The notes beneath the pieces are model-generated. The model was not told where the DNA came from. It did not search any database and was given only the letters and a program-made list of their open reading frames with translations. Source: an uncultured Calditrichaceae bacterium (GTDB taxonomy: Bacteria; Zhuqueibacterota; Zhuqueibacteria; Oceanimicrobiales; Oceanimicrobiaceae). Taken from it: 32,000 bases of DNA. Positions 11,069 to 16,853 of the stretch are shown in pieces; the stretch's first letter is position 1, and every line of letters starts with the position of its first letter. A program made the position numbers and the translations under genes. The stretch covers positions 50,805-82,804 of the forward strand of contig CAYVXE010000003.1 in NCBI GenBank assembly GCA_964455375.1, given 5' to 3'.

Positions 11069-11258
11069 AATTTTTCTCCAGTATAAATAGGTTTGTATTT
11101 AGCAATCAATTTAAAGATTTTGCAAGAAAGAATCAAAGAAAAATCGGCAGCTTTTTTCTTTACATAATAGAAGAGAATGCGTATTTTACATTTGTATGTG
11201 ACACACCGAGCAATCGTTGCTTACCTTAAAACCACTCAATATTGTTCCGGAGGGAAAA

Positions 11259-12563
11259 ATGAAGCTTAAATTGCATTGGCAGATTATTATCGGTTTAATT
11301 TTAGGTCTGATTTATGGAATCGTTGCTGCGATAAATGGTTGGGGTGCGTTTACGTCTGATTGGATCGCTCCTTTCGGGAAAATATTTATTAATTTACTAA
11401 AATTGATTGCCATTCCGCTCATTCTCGGATCACTAATTTCCGGTGTTGCTTCTCTCTCGGATTTAAAAAAGCTTTCCCGTATCGGCGGCAAGACCATTTT
11501 TATTTATATAACCACCACGGCTGTTTCCGTGACGATAGGGCTACTCATCGTAAATATGCTCAGACCAGGGAAAAGTGTTCCCCAGGATATGCGAGTAAAA
11601 CTACAGTCCGTCTACCAAACGGATGTGCAAACGAAGAAACAAGCTGCCCAGCAAGCTAAAGAACGCGGACCGTTACAACCCTTGGTGGATATAGTACCGT
11701 CCAATTTTGCCAACTCTGCTGCCAGTAATCGAAATATGCTGCAAGTTGTGTTTTTCGCAATTTTCATTGGTATTGGCATCATTCAAGTATCCGAAGAGAA
11801 GGCGAAACCGTTCCTGGGTTTTTTCAAGGGGTTAAATGACGTGATTATAAAAATGGTGGATAATATAATGCTTATGGCACCCATCGGTGTCTTTGCTCTC
11901 ATTGCCGATACCATCAACAGTGTTGCTAAAGATAATATTCACCAGGTCGGGGAGTTGTTAGGTGCGTTAGGCTACTACTGTTTGGCGGTTATTCTCGGCC
12001 TTCTTGTACAAACACTGGTCACCTATCCGATCATATTAAAGTTGTTCACGCCGATGCCGATTGTGAAATTTTTCAAAGGTATTTCACAAGCACAGATTTT
12101 AGCTTTCTCCACCAGTTCCAGTGGCGCGACACTTCCGGTTACAATGGAGAGTTGCGAGAAAAATCTCGGTGTTTCAGAAGAAGTGTCTGCTTTTGTTCTG
12201 CCGCTTGGTGCTACCATAAACATGGATGGCACCGCACTTTACCAGGCGGTTGCAGCGGTTTTTATCGCCCAGACACTCGGGCTTGATTTAGATATTGGCG
12301 CCCAACTGACGATCATTCTGACCGCGGTCTTAGCGTCCATTGGGACGGCTGCAGTGCCGGGAGCCGGTATTATCATGCTAGTGATTATTCTGGAAGCGAT
12401 TCATGTTCCCAGCGCCGGGATTGCTCTGATTTTAGGCGTCGACCGAATTCTGGATATGTGCCGAACGGTTACGAATATCACTGGAGATTCAACGGTTGCC
12501 GTAACTATCGCGGCCACAGAAGGCCAGTTGGCAGACGTAAAGGACGACAATTGGAAAAATTAA
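11259..12563 (+). CDS. dicarboxylate/amino acid:cation symporter (GltP/GltT/DctA family)
   Basis: Family motifs are SSSGATLPVTME, ATINMDGTALYQ and ITGD. The chosen start ATG 11259 (MKLKLHWQII) is preceded by GGAGGG. Confidence 0.9.
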   Translation: MKLKLHWQIIIGLILGLIYGIVAAINGWGAFTSDWIAPFGKIFINLLKLIAIPLILGSLISGVASLSDLKKLSRIGGKTIFIYITTTAVSVTIGLLIVNMLRPGKSVPQDMRVKLQSVYQTDVQTKKQAAQQAKERGPLQPLVDIVPSNFANSAASNRNMLQVVFFAIFIGIGIIQVSEEKAKPFLGFFKGLNDVIIKMVDNIMLMAPIGVFALIADTINSVAKDNIHQVGELLGALGYYCLAVILGLLVQTLVTYPIILKLFTPMPIVKFFKGISQAQILAFSTSSSGATLPVTMESCEKNLGVSEEVSAFVLPLGATINMDGTALYQAVAAVFIAQTLGLDLDIGAQLTIILTAVLASIGTAAVPGAGIIMLVIILEAIHVPSAGIALILGVDRILDMCRTVTNITGDSTVAVTIAATEGQLADVKDDNWKN

Positions 12564-12646
12564 ATCCTGTATCTGTTAAAATGTTTTAATAAGTAAAAAT
12601 ACACTTGTTTTTTGTGATTTTTGCTCACTAAGAAGAAAACAGGTAG

Positions 12647-12666
12647 TGTGAATAAAGTGTGGATAA
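12647..12666. promoter_or_regulatory. tandem DnaA boxes: TGTGAATAA (1 mismatch) and TGTGGATAA (perfect)
   Basis: 12647-12655 is TGTGAATAA. 12658-12666 is TGTGGATAA, the reverse complement of the consensus TTATCCACA. The two are 2 nt apart. Confidence 0.6.
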
Positions 12667-12937
12667 CTTTTAAGAGATGGCTATATTTTCTTTATATCTT
12701 AAAATAACGCAAAATTCTCAAGAAACTGCGAATTTGGGCGAATAATACGGATTTTTTGGCGACAGATAAAACTTCAGCCGTTTTATGGTTGTCATAAGCT
12801 TTAAATAATTAATGGTTTACGTAGATTTATTTGTTGGGATTCAGGTGAGGTGTTCCGGCTAGAACCTTTTATTGCTTTAAGTATTAATAATTGACAACAG
12901 ATATTGACTTGCATGTCTCTTAGGCCACAGTGGAATG

Positions 12938-12961
12938 TTATCCACAAAAAAATGTGGATAA
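12938..12961. promoter_or_regulatory. inverted pair of perfect DnaA boxes
   Basis: TTATCCACA (12938-12946) and TGTGGATAA (12953-12961) are separated by AAAAAA. A further one-mismatch box, TGTGTATAA, lies at 13041-13049. Confidence 0.65.
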
Positions 12962-13087
12962 CTTGTTGAGGCTAAGGAAAAGTGATAGTGAGTTTAGATG
13001 CTTGTTTTACAACGCAATTAGCCGGAAAGATGATGGAGATTGTGTATAAAATATGATTTGAAGGCTTTGGTAAGTGGCAAATAATCG

Positions 13088-13116
13088 TTGACTTTATGTG
13101 AAAAGATTCTTAAATA
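13088..13116 (+). promoter_or_regulatory. sigma-70-like promoter candidate for the DUF92 gene
   Basis: TTGACT (13088-13093), 17 nt, then TAAATA (13111-13116). This would give a very short leader before the ATG at 13132. Confidence 0.3.
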
Positions 13117-13131
13117 TCAGCATTATTTTTC

Positions 13132-13953
13132 ATGGAATCAAATGTGGTTTATCTGGGTGGTTTTATTCTTGCCACAACGGCTGCTGTGGTGTCTTATCGA
13201 TTAAAACTGTTGACCAGAGGGGGGGCGTTCGTTGCTTTTCTGATGGGGTGGATCGTTTTCAGCCTGGGTCAACTTCCATTTAGTGCGCCGATATTATTCT
13301 TTTTTGTCTCGTCTAACCTGTTGTCAAAAACTAATCACACGCAAAAGTCAAGGTTATATATTTTTGCTAATGATATGGATCGAAGAAATTGGTTTCAAGT
13401 CTTCGCGAATGGATTTGTACCAACCATTCTGGTCATTGCCTGGAGTTTTAAGCATGACATGCGGGTTGTGTTTCTTTTTCTCATCGCTCTGGCATCGGCA
13501 ACATCGGACACATGGGCCAGTGAAATCGGAATTCTGTCACAGAAAAAACCACGTTCCATTATTTCATTTAAGCCGGCAGACGCAGGCAGCTCTGGCGGAG
13601 TCACGTTGCTTGGTTTCTGGGGAGCTGCTATCGGATCTTTTTCCCTTGCAATAACGGGGGGATGGATTTTTTATCGTTTGGCCCACATAAATTTTACCTG
13701 GTATCATATCTTTTCGATTTTCGCGATCGGAGTGTTTTCACAGACCGTCGATAGTATTTTAGGTGCCAGTTTACAAGCAAAGTATCTTTGTCCGGTTTGC
13801 CAAAAAACAATTGAAAAACCAACACACCTGGAACACGGTCCGGCCCGCTGTGTTGCCGGGTTTTCCTGGGTGGACAATAGCGTAGTTAACTTATTCTCCA
13901 TTATCATCGGCACGCTGGTCGGATGGTTGAGTTTAGGGACAATGCAACAGTAA
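13132..13953 (+). CDS. DUF92 (TMEM19-like) integral membrane protein
   Basis: The product is polytopic. It has the conserved SDTWASEIG block and a C-terminal CPVC...HLEHG metal-ribbon-like segment typical of the family. Confidence 0.8.
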   Translation: MESNVVYLGGFILATTAAVVSYRLKLLTRGGAFVAFLMGWIVFSLGQLPFSAPILFFFVSSNLLSKTNHTQKSRLYIFANDMDRRNWFQVFANGFVPTILVIAWSFKHDMRVVFLFLIALASATSDTWASEIGILSQKKPRSIISFKPADAGSSGGVTLLGFWGAAIGSFSLAITGGWIFYRLAHINFTWYHIFSIFAIGVFSQTVDSILGASLQAKYLCPVCQKTIEKPTHLEHGPARCVAGFSWVDNSVVNLFSIIIGTLVGWLSLGTMQQ

Positions 13954-13965
13954 AGGAATGAAAAT

Positions 13966-14262
13966 ATGGCACTGAAAAAAAAATGGAAAATCGGTCTGTT
14001 CATCACAAGTATTTTTGTGTTGATTATTTATTTGTTTTTTGCGGGTGACTACAATTTATATCATTTATGGAAATTGAAGCAGAAGAGGAAAGCGTTGATT
14101 TCTGAGATTGCAAATCAGAAGAAAAAAAACTTGGACCTCCAGACAGAAATTCAAAAATTAAAAGCAGATTCCACACATATAGAGAAGATTGCCCGTGAAA
14201 AATATACCATGGGCAAAAAAGGCGAAACGATTTATAAATTCAATCAGAAGGCACAGAAGTGA
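13966..14262 (+). CDS. septum formation initiator family protein (FtsB/DivIC-like)
   Basis: The 98-aa ORF has one N-terminal TM, a coiled coil (KKKNLDLQTEIQKLK) and a C-terminal IAREKYTMGKKGETIY. Confidence 0.7.
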   Translation: MALKKKWKIGLFITSIFVLIIYLFFAGDYNLYHLWKLKQKRKALISEIANQKKKNLDLQTEIQKLKADSTHIEKIAREKYTMGKKGETIYKFNQKAQK

Positions 14263-14948
14263 GCGATTCAAAACCCTTGGTGCCAAAAGGAGGCATCGGT
14301 AAAAAATTCAGAGCTTATTTTTTAACCGGATTGCTGGTATTGGTTCCTTTAGCTGTAACGTATTTTATCATCAAACTTTTATTTCTTTCAATCGATGATA
14401 TCTTAAACGATTTTGTATCCAGGCTTCTATACAGATTCGGTCTTGAAATTGGTGGAAGAAGAATTCCAGGCATTGGTTTTATCACGTTAATCTTAATCAT
14501 TACCTTTACCGGGTTGTTTACACGAAATTATTTCGGTAAAAAGCTGGTGGATTTGGGCGATCGATTGATGCAGAGAATTCCTTTGATTAATCGTGTTTAT
14601 GGCGCTACAAAACAAATCAGTCAGGCTTTTTTTTCGGCAAAGCGAGAGGTTTTTAAAAAGGCCGTTTTGTTTGAATATCCCAGGAAAGGAATTTATTCCA
14701 TCGGGTTTTATACGCAGGATACCAGGGGGTCTGTTCAGGACGCGCTGGAAGACGACGTCGTGAGTGTTTTTTTGCCAACGACCCCAAATCCGACGTCTGG
14801 CTTTTTGCTGTTTGTGAAAAAGGCGGAAATGGTTGAATTAGATCTCACCATTGAAGAAGCGTTGAAGCTGGTTATTTCCGGCGGAGCTATCGTACCTGAT
14901 GCTAATAAGAATCCAACAAGAATTCAAAACCCGAAAAACAAGGGTTAA
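14259..14948 (+). CDS. DUF502 domain-containing membrane protein
   Basis: The GTG start overlaps the upstream stop (GTGA). Motifs are IPGIGFITLI, RIPLINRVY and PTTPNPTSGFLLFV. Confidence 0.8.
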   Translation: MSDSKPLVPKGGIGKKFRAYFLTGLLVLVPLAVTYFIIKLLFLSIDDILNDFVSRLLYRFGLEIGGRRIPGIGFITLILIITFTGLFTRNYFGKKLVDLGDRLMQRIPLINRVYGATKQISQAFFSAKREVFKKAVLFEYPRKGIYSIGFYTQDTRGSVQDALEDDVVSVFLPTTPNPTSGFLLFVKKAEMVELDLTIEEALKLVISGGAIVPDANKNPTRIQNPKNKG

Positions 14949-14963
14949 TTTCCATAGAGAAAA

Positions 14964-16853
14964 ATGTGTTTGAGTAAATTAATGGCATGGACCATTTTAG
15001 CAACTGGAGTACTTAGCGGGTCTCCGGACGGTCTGGCGATTGCTCAAACAGGCGTTAACACCGAGCCTCTGCTGATGCAACCGCGGTATTCACGATTAAA
15101 TTTCAACCGGTCGCTTAATATTTACGAATGGTTTTACAGATTCAATTACCATAAACGCGTTGGCAAAAAACTGCAATTCCTTTTGCGAGAGAATTATCGT
15201 ACAACGTTACAGCAAACGAAAGCAAAAGATTTATGGAAGGACGATCAGAATTTTGTGGTGCAGTTCACGTATCCCTTTGCTACAAAGCTTATGTTTGAAG
15301 CATCGTTCGACTCCCGTGTTTTGTCGGATCCCTTGGCTGGCTTTGATAACAGTGTGACCTATTATTCCGGCACCACAAAAATACATTATACGCCGTTTAG
15401 GAATATAAGGCTATCACCGCAAATCAGTCGTCAGTGGCAAACGCAACTGGAGCAAAGCGACCAGGGGGTGGGGTATGGATTAGCCGCGGATGTTGATCGG
15501 TTCGATTTTAATGGCTACAGCACGAATTTGACATTTTTCGGAGAAAGGGATATATTCCCAAAACGGAGGAACGATGATATTAAATTTCGCTATACGATTA
15601 AGCGGCAGTTTTATGAATCCACAGCAGATACGCTGGCGATCATTTTTGACCGGTTACGCCGCGATAGTTTCGATGCGTTTACGACCGGTGTTTTTATACG
15701 CAACTTAATCCAGTCCCGAAGGGGTATCGAAAATAAACTTAGTTACAAGGTTGGCTCTTCTTCGGTTCTTTATGTTAAAAATGCGCTTTTATCAACATCG
15801 TTCAAAGTGAAGAATATAAAAGGCAGCTCCACAGATTTACAGAAGGAGGATGCAGGATTCGAGTCACGGCATTCGCTGAATTTGAAAATGAAAAAGTCAA
15901 AGTGGGTTGGAAACGTGGGTTGGAATTTTCGGCTTCGTACACGCGACGATAAACGTAAGGTCGACCGCACACCGGACCCCTTTGGCCGTTTCCCGACAGT
16001 GGGATTTGACTCGGAAGATAAGTTAGTAGAATTAAACACACACAGCGGATATGCGTTGAGCTCGGCGGATTCTTTAGGATTTTTTGCTGCCGTTTCAAAA
16101 TTTCAATACGATACGTCAGATACGACAAGTCCCAATGATCATGATTTTATTCGCTGGCAAGTATTCTTTTCACATGCACATACGTTTAACAAAACGTTAC
16201 ATCTGGTTTGGTCGGGAGGGGTATTCTTAAATCATTTTGTTTTTATTTCCGGGAGATTCAGCAGTGGTAATAATTGGGAGCGGATCTTTCAGTTGACTCC
16301 TGAAGTGGTTTTTCAGCCGCAACGGCAATGGTATTTCAAGCAGAAGTTTATCGTCCGGTCAAAATACCAAACGTATGATTTTGACGATGCTGCGACGAGC
16401 AATCGAAATATCGTCAGCCGTCAATTTATTGTATCTAATATCAGCCATTTCCCGTTTCCCGGGAATATGAGTGCGGAGTTGTCCGTTGATCTTGAGTTAG
16501 CAGAACAGGGACGTTTATTTTATAGTCGTTGGCGGCAGAATTTAGCTCTCTCCTGGCAAAATCGGGAAATTCGTTTTATGCTAAAAAAAAGATTACATTC
16601 CGGTATGAATATATCGGTTGGAGGAAGTTATTTCAACCAGAAACGCTGGCAACATAATCTCAATTCGAAGGGTAATTTCGACAAAAAATTGCAGACAATG
16701 CATACCAATTGGGGGCCGATTGTTCAGGTCAGGTATCAACCGCACCCTTCGATGGAAGTTTTGTTTTTAGGAAATATTCAGTTTGTTAATTCGTTTCGCA
16801 GACGCACAGAAACAATCAATAATTTCGACGTGAATGTCAATTGGTTTTTTTAA
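14964..16853 (+). CDS. hypothetical outer-membrane beta-barrel protein
   Basis: The 629-aa ORF has a signal peptide and alternating aromatic/polar beta-strand-like texture. It ends in an aromatic residue (...VNWFF). I recognise no family. Confidence 0.5.
   Translation: MCLSKLMAWTILATGVLSGSPDGLAIAQTGVNTEPLLMQPRYSRLNFNRSLNIYEWFYRFNYHKRVGKKLQFLLRENYRTTLQQTKAKDLWKDDQNFVVQFTYPFATKLMFEASFDSRVLSDPLAGFDNSVTYYSGTTKIHYTPFRNIRLSPQISRQWQTQLEQSDQGVGYGLAADVDRFDFNGYSTNLTFFGERDIFPKRRNDDIKFRYTIKRQFYESTADTLAIIFDRLRRDSFDAFTTGVFIRNLIQSRRGIENKLSYKVGSSSVLYVKNALLSTSFKVKNIKGSSTDLQKEDAGFESRHSLNLKMKKSKWVGNVGWNFRLRTRDDKRKVDRTPDPFGRFPTVGFDSEDKLVELNTHSGYALSSADSLGFFAAVSKFQYDTSDTTSPNDHDFIRWQVFFSHAHTFNKTLHLVWSGGVFLNHFVFISGRFSSGNNWERIFQLTPEVVFQPQRQWYFKQKFIVRSKYQTYDFDDAATSNRNIVSRQFIVSNISHFPFPGNMSAELSVDLELAEQGRLFYSRWRQNLALSWQNREIRFMLKKRLHSGMNISVGGSYFNQKRWQHNLNSKGNFDKKLQTMHTNWGPIVQVRYQPHPSMEVLFLGNIQFVNSFRRRTETINNFDVNVNWFF

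Follow-up and report, generated by a model that had tools for sequence, protein, structure and literature searches.

The window analysed here is a stretch of 32,000 nt (contig C3:50805-82804) from the genome of an uncultured Calditrichaceae bacterium, and the element of interest within it is a cluster of binding sites (boxes) for the replication initiator DnaA. The cluster lies in an intergenic spacer of 568 nt and 31.9% GC (12564..13131), between a gene for a symporter of the SDF family and a gene for a DUF92 protein, and this spacer contains the entire module plus the promoter predicted for the operon that follows. The module is a rare, conserved, single-copy pair of box arrays of constrained separation that usually stands before a divisome/envelope operon and is distinct from the replication origin, oriC.

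Three perfect DnaA boxes, TTATCCACA, occur in the spacer, at 12658-12666 on the minus strand, 12938-12946 on the plus strand and 12953-12961 on the minus strand. They are joined by two one-mismatch boxes, both on the minus strand, at 12647-12655 (TTATTCACA) and 13041-13049 (TTATACACA). All five had been listed in the original prediction for this window, and they were re-located exactly where it had placed them. The arrangement that it described, a tandem pair and an inverted pair separated by A6, was likewise confirmed, with the tandem pair in an 11-bp register.

These boxes define two anchors. Anchor 1 (12647..12666, minus strand) consists of a one-mismatch box and a perfect box in tandem, and it reads on the plus strand as TGTGAATAA-AG-TGTGGATAA-CTT. 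Anchor 2 (12938..12961) pairs the perfect box at 12953-12961 with a perfect inverted partner at 12938-12946 across the A6 run; the conserved box of the two is 12953-12961, oriented like anchor 1, while the inverted partner occurs only in some genera. Between the anchors lies an AT-rich interior (12667..12937) whose length is conserved but whose sequence is not, and no extra DnaA boxes were found in that interval.

All three perfect boxes of the window fall inside the spacer, and the claim that three such boxes exceed chance held up well. When the spacer was shuffled 2000 times, no shuffle had as many as three perfect boxes (mean 0.008), and five boxes with at most one mismatch were observed against a shuffle mean of 0.24. 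Perfect boxes number 82 across the draft genome (4.66 Mb in 230 contigs), and when the whole genome was ranked by box density in 600-nt windows, the dnaA-dnaN spacer came first, the module spacer second and the spacer upstream of dnaA next. The 12-mer TGTGGATAACTT has only three genomic copies, one upstream of dnaA and one at each module anchor. Since the true origin at dnaA carries this 9-mer and 12-mer as well, TTATCCACA can be taken as the cognate DnaA site of the lineage.

Another short motif, (T/C)TGCGA, also occurs in the module. The copy in this genome is CTGCGA (12726..12731, plus strand), and across the family of this genome (f1) the motif is conserved at a distance of some 65-90 nt beyond anchor 1. 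A box-like ATATCCACA in the opposite orientation follows it in several relatives and is degenerate in the genome studied here; the conservation of (T/C)TGCGA exceeds that of the ATATCCACA seen in some genera. A role for TTGCGA as a -35 element was considered and rejected, as no sigma-70-type -10 element occurs at the correct spacing in any relative.

Conservation of the module across the class

The genomes used for comparison are draft metagenome-assembled genomes (MAGs) with taxon labels as in their records (KSB1, Caldithrix, Calditrichaceae, Calditrichota). The nearest of them belong to other genera, and related genomes are non-independent, so the counts given below overstate the number of independent observations. 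When the spacer was aligned with those of relatives at the DNA level, only the box motifs were found in common. Because the spacer is otherwise unalignable, its conservation was tested by synteny and by patterns. Lack of box conservation in related genomes had been named beforehand as the outcome that would count against the cluster, and the opposite was found.

Among the f1 relatives that carry the DUF92-ftsB-DUF502 operon, 9 of 11 have at least one perfect box in the spacer upstream of it. Eight of these nine spacers carry at least two perfect boxes, and the ninth locus ends at a contig edge. Box orientation in the f1 relatives is as in the genome studied here, the distance between distal and proximal boxes is 257-302 bp, and the distal anchor has a conserved tandem consensus, TGTGAAyAA-nn-TGTGGATAA-CTT. 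Of the 125 class genomes, 43 have the tandem pattern of anchor 1, and the reversed control gave 0.

A broader search, for two perfect direct boxes separated by a gap of 245-300 nt, found the pattern in 88/125 class genomes, usually as one copy, against 1 for the reversed-pattern control. The same pattern occurs in 61 of the 79 high-quality genomes, and nearly all families are represented. Gaps of 301-356 nt add about 10 module-like genomes, with a spacing of 311-329 bp, and little was found beyond. Overall, the start-to-start spacing of the anchors is 263-329 bp (median 293, interquartile range 282-302) and is tight within genera. The anchor consensus is a perfect box with weaker boxes at +/-11 bp, a weak-strong-weak arrangement. 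The module is a compact and easily recognised single-copy element, and ~70-80% of genomes have it in a class that is mostly uncultured and has received little study.

One further pair of boxes in the genome studied here mimics the module spacing. On contig C132 (C132:2368-2655), the candidate that comes next in the ranking by box density, two equally oriented perfect boxes have a spacing of 279 bp within an open reading frame (ORF) of 578 aa, and this pair is probably a chance occurrence in coding sequence.

Of 56 modules, 54 have an interior that exceeds the rest of the locus in AT content, and the interiors share no conserved sequence across the class. Boxes with up to two mismatches are not in excess in the interiors (27 and 29, against 24 and 21 in shuffles). 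A continuous DnaA filament on an array of weak boxes was therefore rejected, as the interior counts equal the shuffle expectation. A structured RNA was rejected on two counts: an Rfam search at a permissive threshold over 12300-13400 returned only a chance-level match (E 0.75), and folding of the interior gave z-scores of 0.22 and 1.02 on the two strands. A small protein was also considered, and the spacer contains no ORF longer than 48 aa and none that is conserved.

The chromosomal origin and its distance from the module

The original prediction had proposed that the cluster might be an origin unlinked from dnaA, and had noted that dnaA was not seen nearby. The latter is correct within the window; on the contig, dnaA lies upstream at C3:40462-41811, which leaves 9 kb to the window start and 21.6 kb to the cluster. 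The gene order there is rpmH|dnaA-dnaN-recF-gyrB-gyrA, and perfect boxes flank dnaA on both sides, two upstream and three downstream, in a bipartite layout (C3:40024-42113). The skew minimum, a denser box cluster, the module of DnaA-trios and AT-rich DNA, the parS sites and the synteny all map to dnaA, and the proposal of an unlinked origin does not stand.

The dnaA-dnaN spacer carries, in order, GTTATCCAC-TTATCCACA, gtct, CTACTACTACTA-GTA and a long AT-rich tract. In other words, it holds a box pair, a 4-nt spacer, four consensus 3'-GAT-5' DnaA-trios and an AT-rich tract. Work on other bacteria has defined a basal unwinding system as one or more DnaA boxes, a spacer no longer than 16 bp, three or more DnaA-trios and an AT-rich unwinding tract (PMC8287927). 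Since CTA on the given strand is 3'-GAT-5' on the other, the dnaA-dnaN spacer matches such a system. A strict search for a box followed by CTACTACTA had the dnaA-dnaN spacer as its sole match in the genome. Across the class the strict trio pattern matched only this genome and one other, and so it is too strict to show conservation; the dnaA-dnaN spacers of relatives were therefore inspected directly, and three related genera have the same origin layout. At the module anchors, DnaA-trios amount to a loose A-centred run in the genome studied here, and none are conserved in the relatives.

Two perfect parS sites, TGTTTCACGTGAAACA, occur at C3:33983 and C3:35914, 5-7 kb to the left of dnaA, and no other perfect copy exists in the genome. 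GC skew shifts from about -0.15 to about +0.13 at C3 40-42 kb. In a gene-level regression of skew on replication direction and gene strand, the best switch fell at C3 37-42 kb, with a residual sum of squares of 226-246; when the switch was forced to the module (63.5 kb), the residual sum of squares rose to 354 and the replication term collapsed. In addition, minus-strand genes between dnaA and the module (C3:56.9-61.1 kb) still have positive skew.

The skew check that had been suggested for the spacer thus places the switch at dnaA, as it does in three further genera whose dnaA and module share a contig (G013, G004 and G012). In these three, the only perfect boxes in 80-117 kb are those flanking dnaA and those of the module. 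In two more distant genomes, G107 and G077, the module lies inside DNA of uniform skew sign and the skew changes near dnaA; these were used in place of G055, whose skew around the module and dnaA is noisy and uninformative. The spacer does have a box cluster as expected of oriC, but it coincides with neither the skew switch nor a basal unwinding system. On these sequence features oriC is the ordinary dnaA-dnaN locus and not the spacer cluster, and a dense cluster of DnaA boxes alone is clearly insufficient for calling an origin.

How far the module lies from dnaA varies by family; values given as "at least" are minimum distances set by contig geometry. All five f1 genomes that allow the measurement (the one studied here, G004, G013, G012 and G005) have 19-40 kb between the two. 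The module is 73 kb away from dnaA in f14 (G082), 126 kb in f10 (G124), at least 268 kb in f5 (G029), at least 567 kb in f12 (G077) and at least 683 kb in f8 (G107), and a partial copy in f9 (G055) is 820 kb from dnaA.

Operon, promoter and gene context

The operon downstream of the module (13132..16853, plus strand) has four genes. They encode a DUF92 membrane protein (13132-13953), an FtsB/DivIC septum-formation initiator (13966-14262), a DUF502 membrane protein (14259-14948) and a conserved protein of 629 aa without a Pfam match (14964-16853), all on the plus strand. FtsB/DivIC is a partner of FtsL in the divisome. In f1, f8 and f12 the gene for the 629-aa protein keeps this fourth place behind DUF502, at 23-51% identity.

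The DUF92 protein itself has an invariant C-terminal cluster, C220-x2-C223 ... H232-C233, across 11 genera, which suggests a metal-binding tail. In GC-richer relatives there are DUF92 ORFs of ~500 aa, and their N-terminal half, which has no Pfam domain, may be an ORF over-extension. In one f12 locus (L194, G077:C3) an enolase gene stands between DUF92 and the rest of the operon. Boxes were also seen before DUF92 in a different phylum: in two Anaerolineales MAGs (L053 and L100), two perfect tandem boxes 22 bp apart lie directly upstream of DUF92, ~130 to 30 nt ahead of it and in an orientation opposite to that of the module. They may represent an independent link between DnaA and DUF92.

The promoter predicted for the operon (13088..13116, plus strand) consists of TTGACT at 13088-13093, a 17-nt spacer and TAAATA at 13111-13116. 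The element is strongly conserved before the operon, as TTGACTTT...TTAAATA in f1 and as TTGC(A/T)T...GTAAATA in f12. Its layout in the window and in L101-L125 and L245-L247 is TTGACTTT, ~9 nt, AAATTT, 3 nt and TTAAATA. Only ~15 nt separate the -10 element from the annotated ATG, a distance that implies either a near-leaderless mRNA or a later start codon. The one-mismatch box at 13041-13049 sits 39 nt upstream of the -35 hexamer.

On the other side of the module, the upstream neighbour (11217..12563, plus strand) is the symporter gene, a member of the sodium:dicarboxylate symporter family. This gene is the upstream neighbour in several f1 genera only, and other families differ. The operon is linked much more widely. 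In an unbiased pattern search, DUF92 and/or ftsB-DUF502 came after the module, always in one orientation, at 22 of 26 assessable loci. Linkage was found in f7 (3/3), f8 (3/4), f6 (2/2) and f15 (2/2), and also in f9 and f12, so that the module stands upstream of DUF92-ftsB-DUF502 in at least nine families. In G107 the module is followed by the full four-gene operon. Where DUF92 is missing (G008, G014, G005, G009 and G017), the module directly precedes ftsB-DUF502, and in G013 the module shares the inversion of its operon with respect to dnaA.

Separation of module and operon was also observed. In four f1 genera (G003, G007, G010 and G011) the two lie apart, and the modules retain both perfect anchors beside unrelated or convergent neighbours, namely lolA/ftsK, genes for an outer membrane protein and a ZIP transporter, and the gene for RNase H. 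Upstream of the relocated operon, no box with up to one mismatch was found in the fetched DNA of G003 (only ~430 nt), G007 or G010, and the operon of G011 has one-mismatch boxes only. The conserved promoter motif is present at the relocated operon in G007, G010 and G011 and was not found in G003. In f10 (six genomes checked from several genera; L255-L260) the module lies ahead of a gene for a C25 peptidase or an FGGY kinase, and in f14 (L267, G082) it lies ahead of smc. Maintenance of the module without the operon argues for a function of its own.

Possible roles of the module and its relation to known systems

To our knowledge, non-origin DnaA loci that time replication are well characterised mainly in Escherichia coli, with datA and the DnaA-reactivating sequences (DARS), and in Bacillus subtilis, with its DnaA-box clusters (DBCs). 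Given its recurrent link to a divisome operon, the module is a candidate both for replication control outside the model phyla and for direct wiring between the initiator and cell division. Of the roles proposed at the outset, namely an origin, a locus for titration or reactivation of DnaA, and a DnaA-controlled promoter, the first is refuted and the other two remain viable.

The reading that we favour, at a probability of roughly 0.55, combines these two. The spacer cluster would be a non-origin locus of DnaA assembly with a dual role, in modulation of the operon and in sequestration or regulation of DnaA. DnaA would occupy both anchors with high affinity, and the DnaA clusters at the two anchors would probably bridge across the ~295-bp flexible, AT-rich interior. 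With no array of weak boxes in the interior and no helical phasing of the anchors, such a bridge or loop is more plausible than a continuous filament. The ancestral position of the module may have been just upstream of the DUF92-ftsB-DUF502 promoter, where it could make transcription of the divisome/envelope operon responsive to the level or nucleotide state of DnaA, and the same locus could concurrently serve as a DnaA sink or regulatory site. In f1, a site ~20 kb from oriC would mean that the module is duplicated right after initiation.

Several observations weigh against this dual role. Helical phasing of the anchor spacing is unsupported (Rayleigh p 0.2-0.7), and the integration host factor (IHF) consensus WATCARNNNNTTR has no match in the spacer on either strand, although this consensus may not be the preference of the phylum. 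Measured from the -35 hexamer, the perfect boxes are 127 and 430 nt away on the upstream side, and the interval between anchor 2 and the promoter spans 61-345 nt or more in relatives, which amounts to no fixed geometry for a classical activator or repressor; a promoter 61-345 nt downstream of anchor 2 also leaves the perfect boxes outside the core promoter. In at least three f1 genera the operon has no nearby boxes. Closeness to the origin is a trait of the family and not of the class. Finally, linkage to the operon could reflect inherited gene order instead of function, although gene order alone is hard to invoke where the upstream neighbour varies and the operon stays linked.

A stronger version of the sequestration part is conceivable and tentative, and we hold it less likely than the dual role. 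In this class the module would be a dedicated, autonomous locus that controls the DnaA cycle; it would be the functional equivalent of datA or DARS, would have arisen before the ftsB operon and would link control of initiation to division. Its own architecture would comprise two tandem-box anchors, with DnaA spanning the ~295 bp of AT-rich DNA between them. If this were true, it would be the first such locus outside the Proteobacteria, Firmicutes and Actinobacteria, found by comparative genomics alone.

Another means by which the module could act is solely through the promoter, with DnaA as a transcription factor for DUF92-ftsB-DUF502 that couples division to replication and with no role in initiation. 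Such a role fits the fixed-orientation linkage to the operon throughout the class while the upstream neighbour changes, the joint inversion of module and operon in G013, and the adjacency of the two hundreds of kb from dnaA in f5, f8 and f12. It also fits the one-mismatch box 39 nt upstream of the -35 hexamer, with a precedent in ftsL and ftsZ (PMC8203912). The survival of both perfect anchors after loss of the operon in f10, f14 and four f1 genera is hard to reconcile with it, as are the boxless relocated operons of G003, G007 and G010, given that G007, G010 and G011 keep the same promoter motif. Moreover, the distance to the promoter is variable, and the conserved length between anchors has no obvious promoter logic. 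A purely transcriptional role is accordingly rather improbable.

Equally doubtful is the converse, in which the module acts only on the DnaA cycle, by titration or stimulated ATP hydrolysis as at datA or by reactivation as at DARS, and owes its position before the operon to inherited gene order. The single copy per genome, an internal architecture that is conserved independently of the neighbours, and persistence without the operon all agree with it, and so do the distances to dnaA, which are 19-40 kb in each of the five f1 genomes that allow the measurement, 73 kb in f14 and 126 kb in f10. Across families, however, the distance from dnaA ranges from 19 kb to >680 kb. The spacer lacks the IHF consensus, the DARS-like inverted pair is not conserved, and gene order poorly explains why the operon is linked in at least nine families and the upstream neighbour is not.

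Next to the dual role, an origin has very little left in its favour. Perfect boxes clustered densely about an AT-rich interior could suggest a chromosomal origin unlinked from dnaA, a second origin or part of a split one, but the skew switches at dnaA in this genome, G013, G004 and G012 and is uniform at the module in G107 and G077; the box pair, 4-nt spacer, four trios and AT-rich tract occur only in the dnaA-dnaN spacer, parS lies near dnaA, and no trios are conserved beside the module anchors. A chance cluster or a decaying, functionless relic is scarcely credible, for although the C132 pair 279 bp apart shows that isolated pairs can arise by chance, 0/2000 shuffles and 88/125 genomes against 1 control, amid DNA that is otherwise unalignable, speak against it.

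Among known systems, the dnaA locus of this genome, with boxes on both sides of the gene, matches the bipartite oriC of B. subtilis and Helicobacter pylori (PMC8287927, PMC3479198). The module differs from such an origin with its basal unwinding system, as it has no conserved trios and does not lie at the skew switch. DnaA-regulated division promoters offer a second comparison: DnaA has binding targets at the ftsL promoter region of B. subtilis and at the Caulobacter ftsZ promoter (PMC8203912), and the module likewise places DnaA boxes upstream of a divisome gene. Unlike these, the perfect boxes of the module lie 127-430 nt above the -35 hexamer, at distances that vary in relatives, and in some genera the operon has no boxes close by.

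Close parallels are found in the B. subtilis DBCs, box clusters outside oriC (Ishikawa 2007; Okumura 2012, PMC3245932) that control neighbouring genes and also restrain initiation (PMC3245932). In both cases consensus boxes cluster in intergenic DNA away from the origin, the real oriC is at dnaA-dnaN, and in f1 the cluster is also near oriC and upstream of genes that DnaA could regulate. The module is an intergenic, non-oriC box cluster, and its boxes are conserved together with the operon that they would regulate, except in f10, f14 and four f1 genera. B. subtilis has six DBCs per genome, and different genes lie behind the clusters in each Bacillus species, whereas the module occurs about once per genome, its two anchors are set in a fixed geometry, and the operon behind it is the same in most families of the class. 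In addition, closeness of the module to the origin is not class-wide.

The E. coli loci provide the remaining comparisons. Like datA, the module is a single-copy, non-coding locus with several boxes of predicted high affinity apart from oriC, conserved in structure and position. The datA locus requires an IHF site between its DnaA boxes; the module has no IHF consensus, no sequence homology to datA and another arrangement of boxes. DARS elements have a compact core of three boxes, of which boxes I and II are oppositely oriented. Both DARS1 and DARS2 are non-origin box clusters, as is the module, and the inverted pair at anchor 2 of this genome superficially resembles the DARS core. That partner is not conserved, however, and the module has two direct anchors ~295 bp apart in place of the compact three-box core, and IHF and Fis elements were not identified in it. 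Judged by these likenesses, the module would function like a locus of the DBC or datA type and is a homologue of none, and its fixed geometry, single copy and retention throughout the class would be new.

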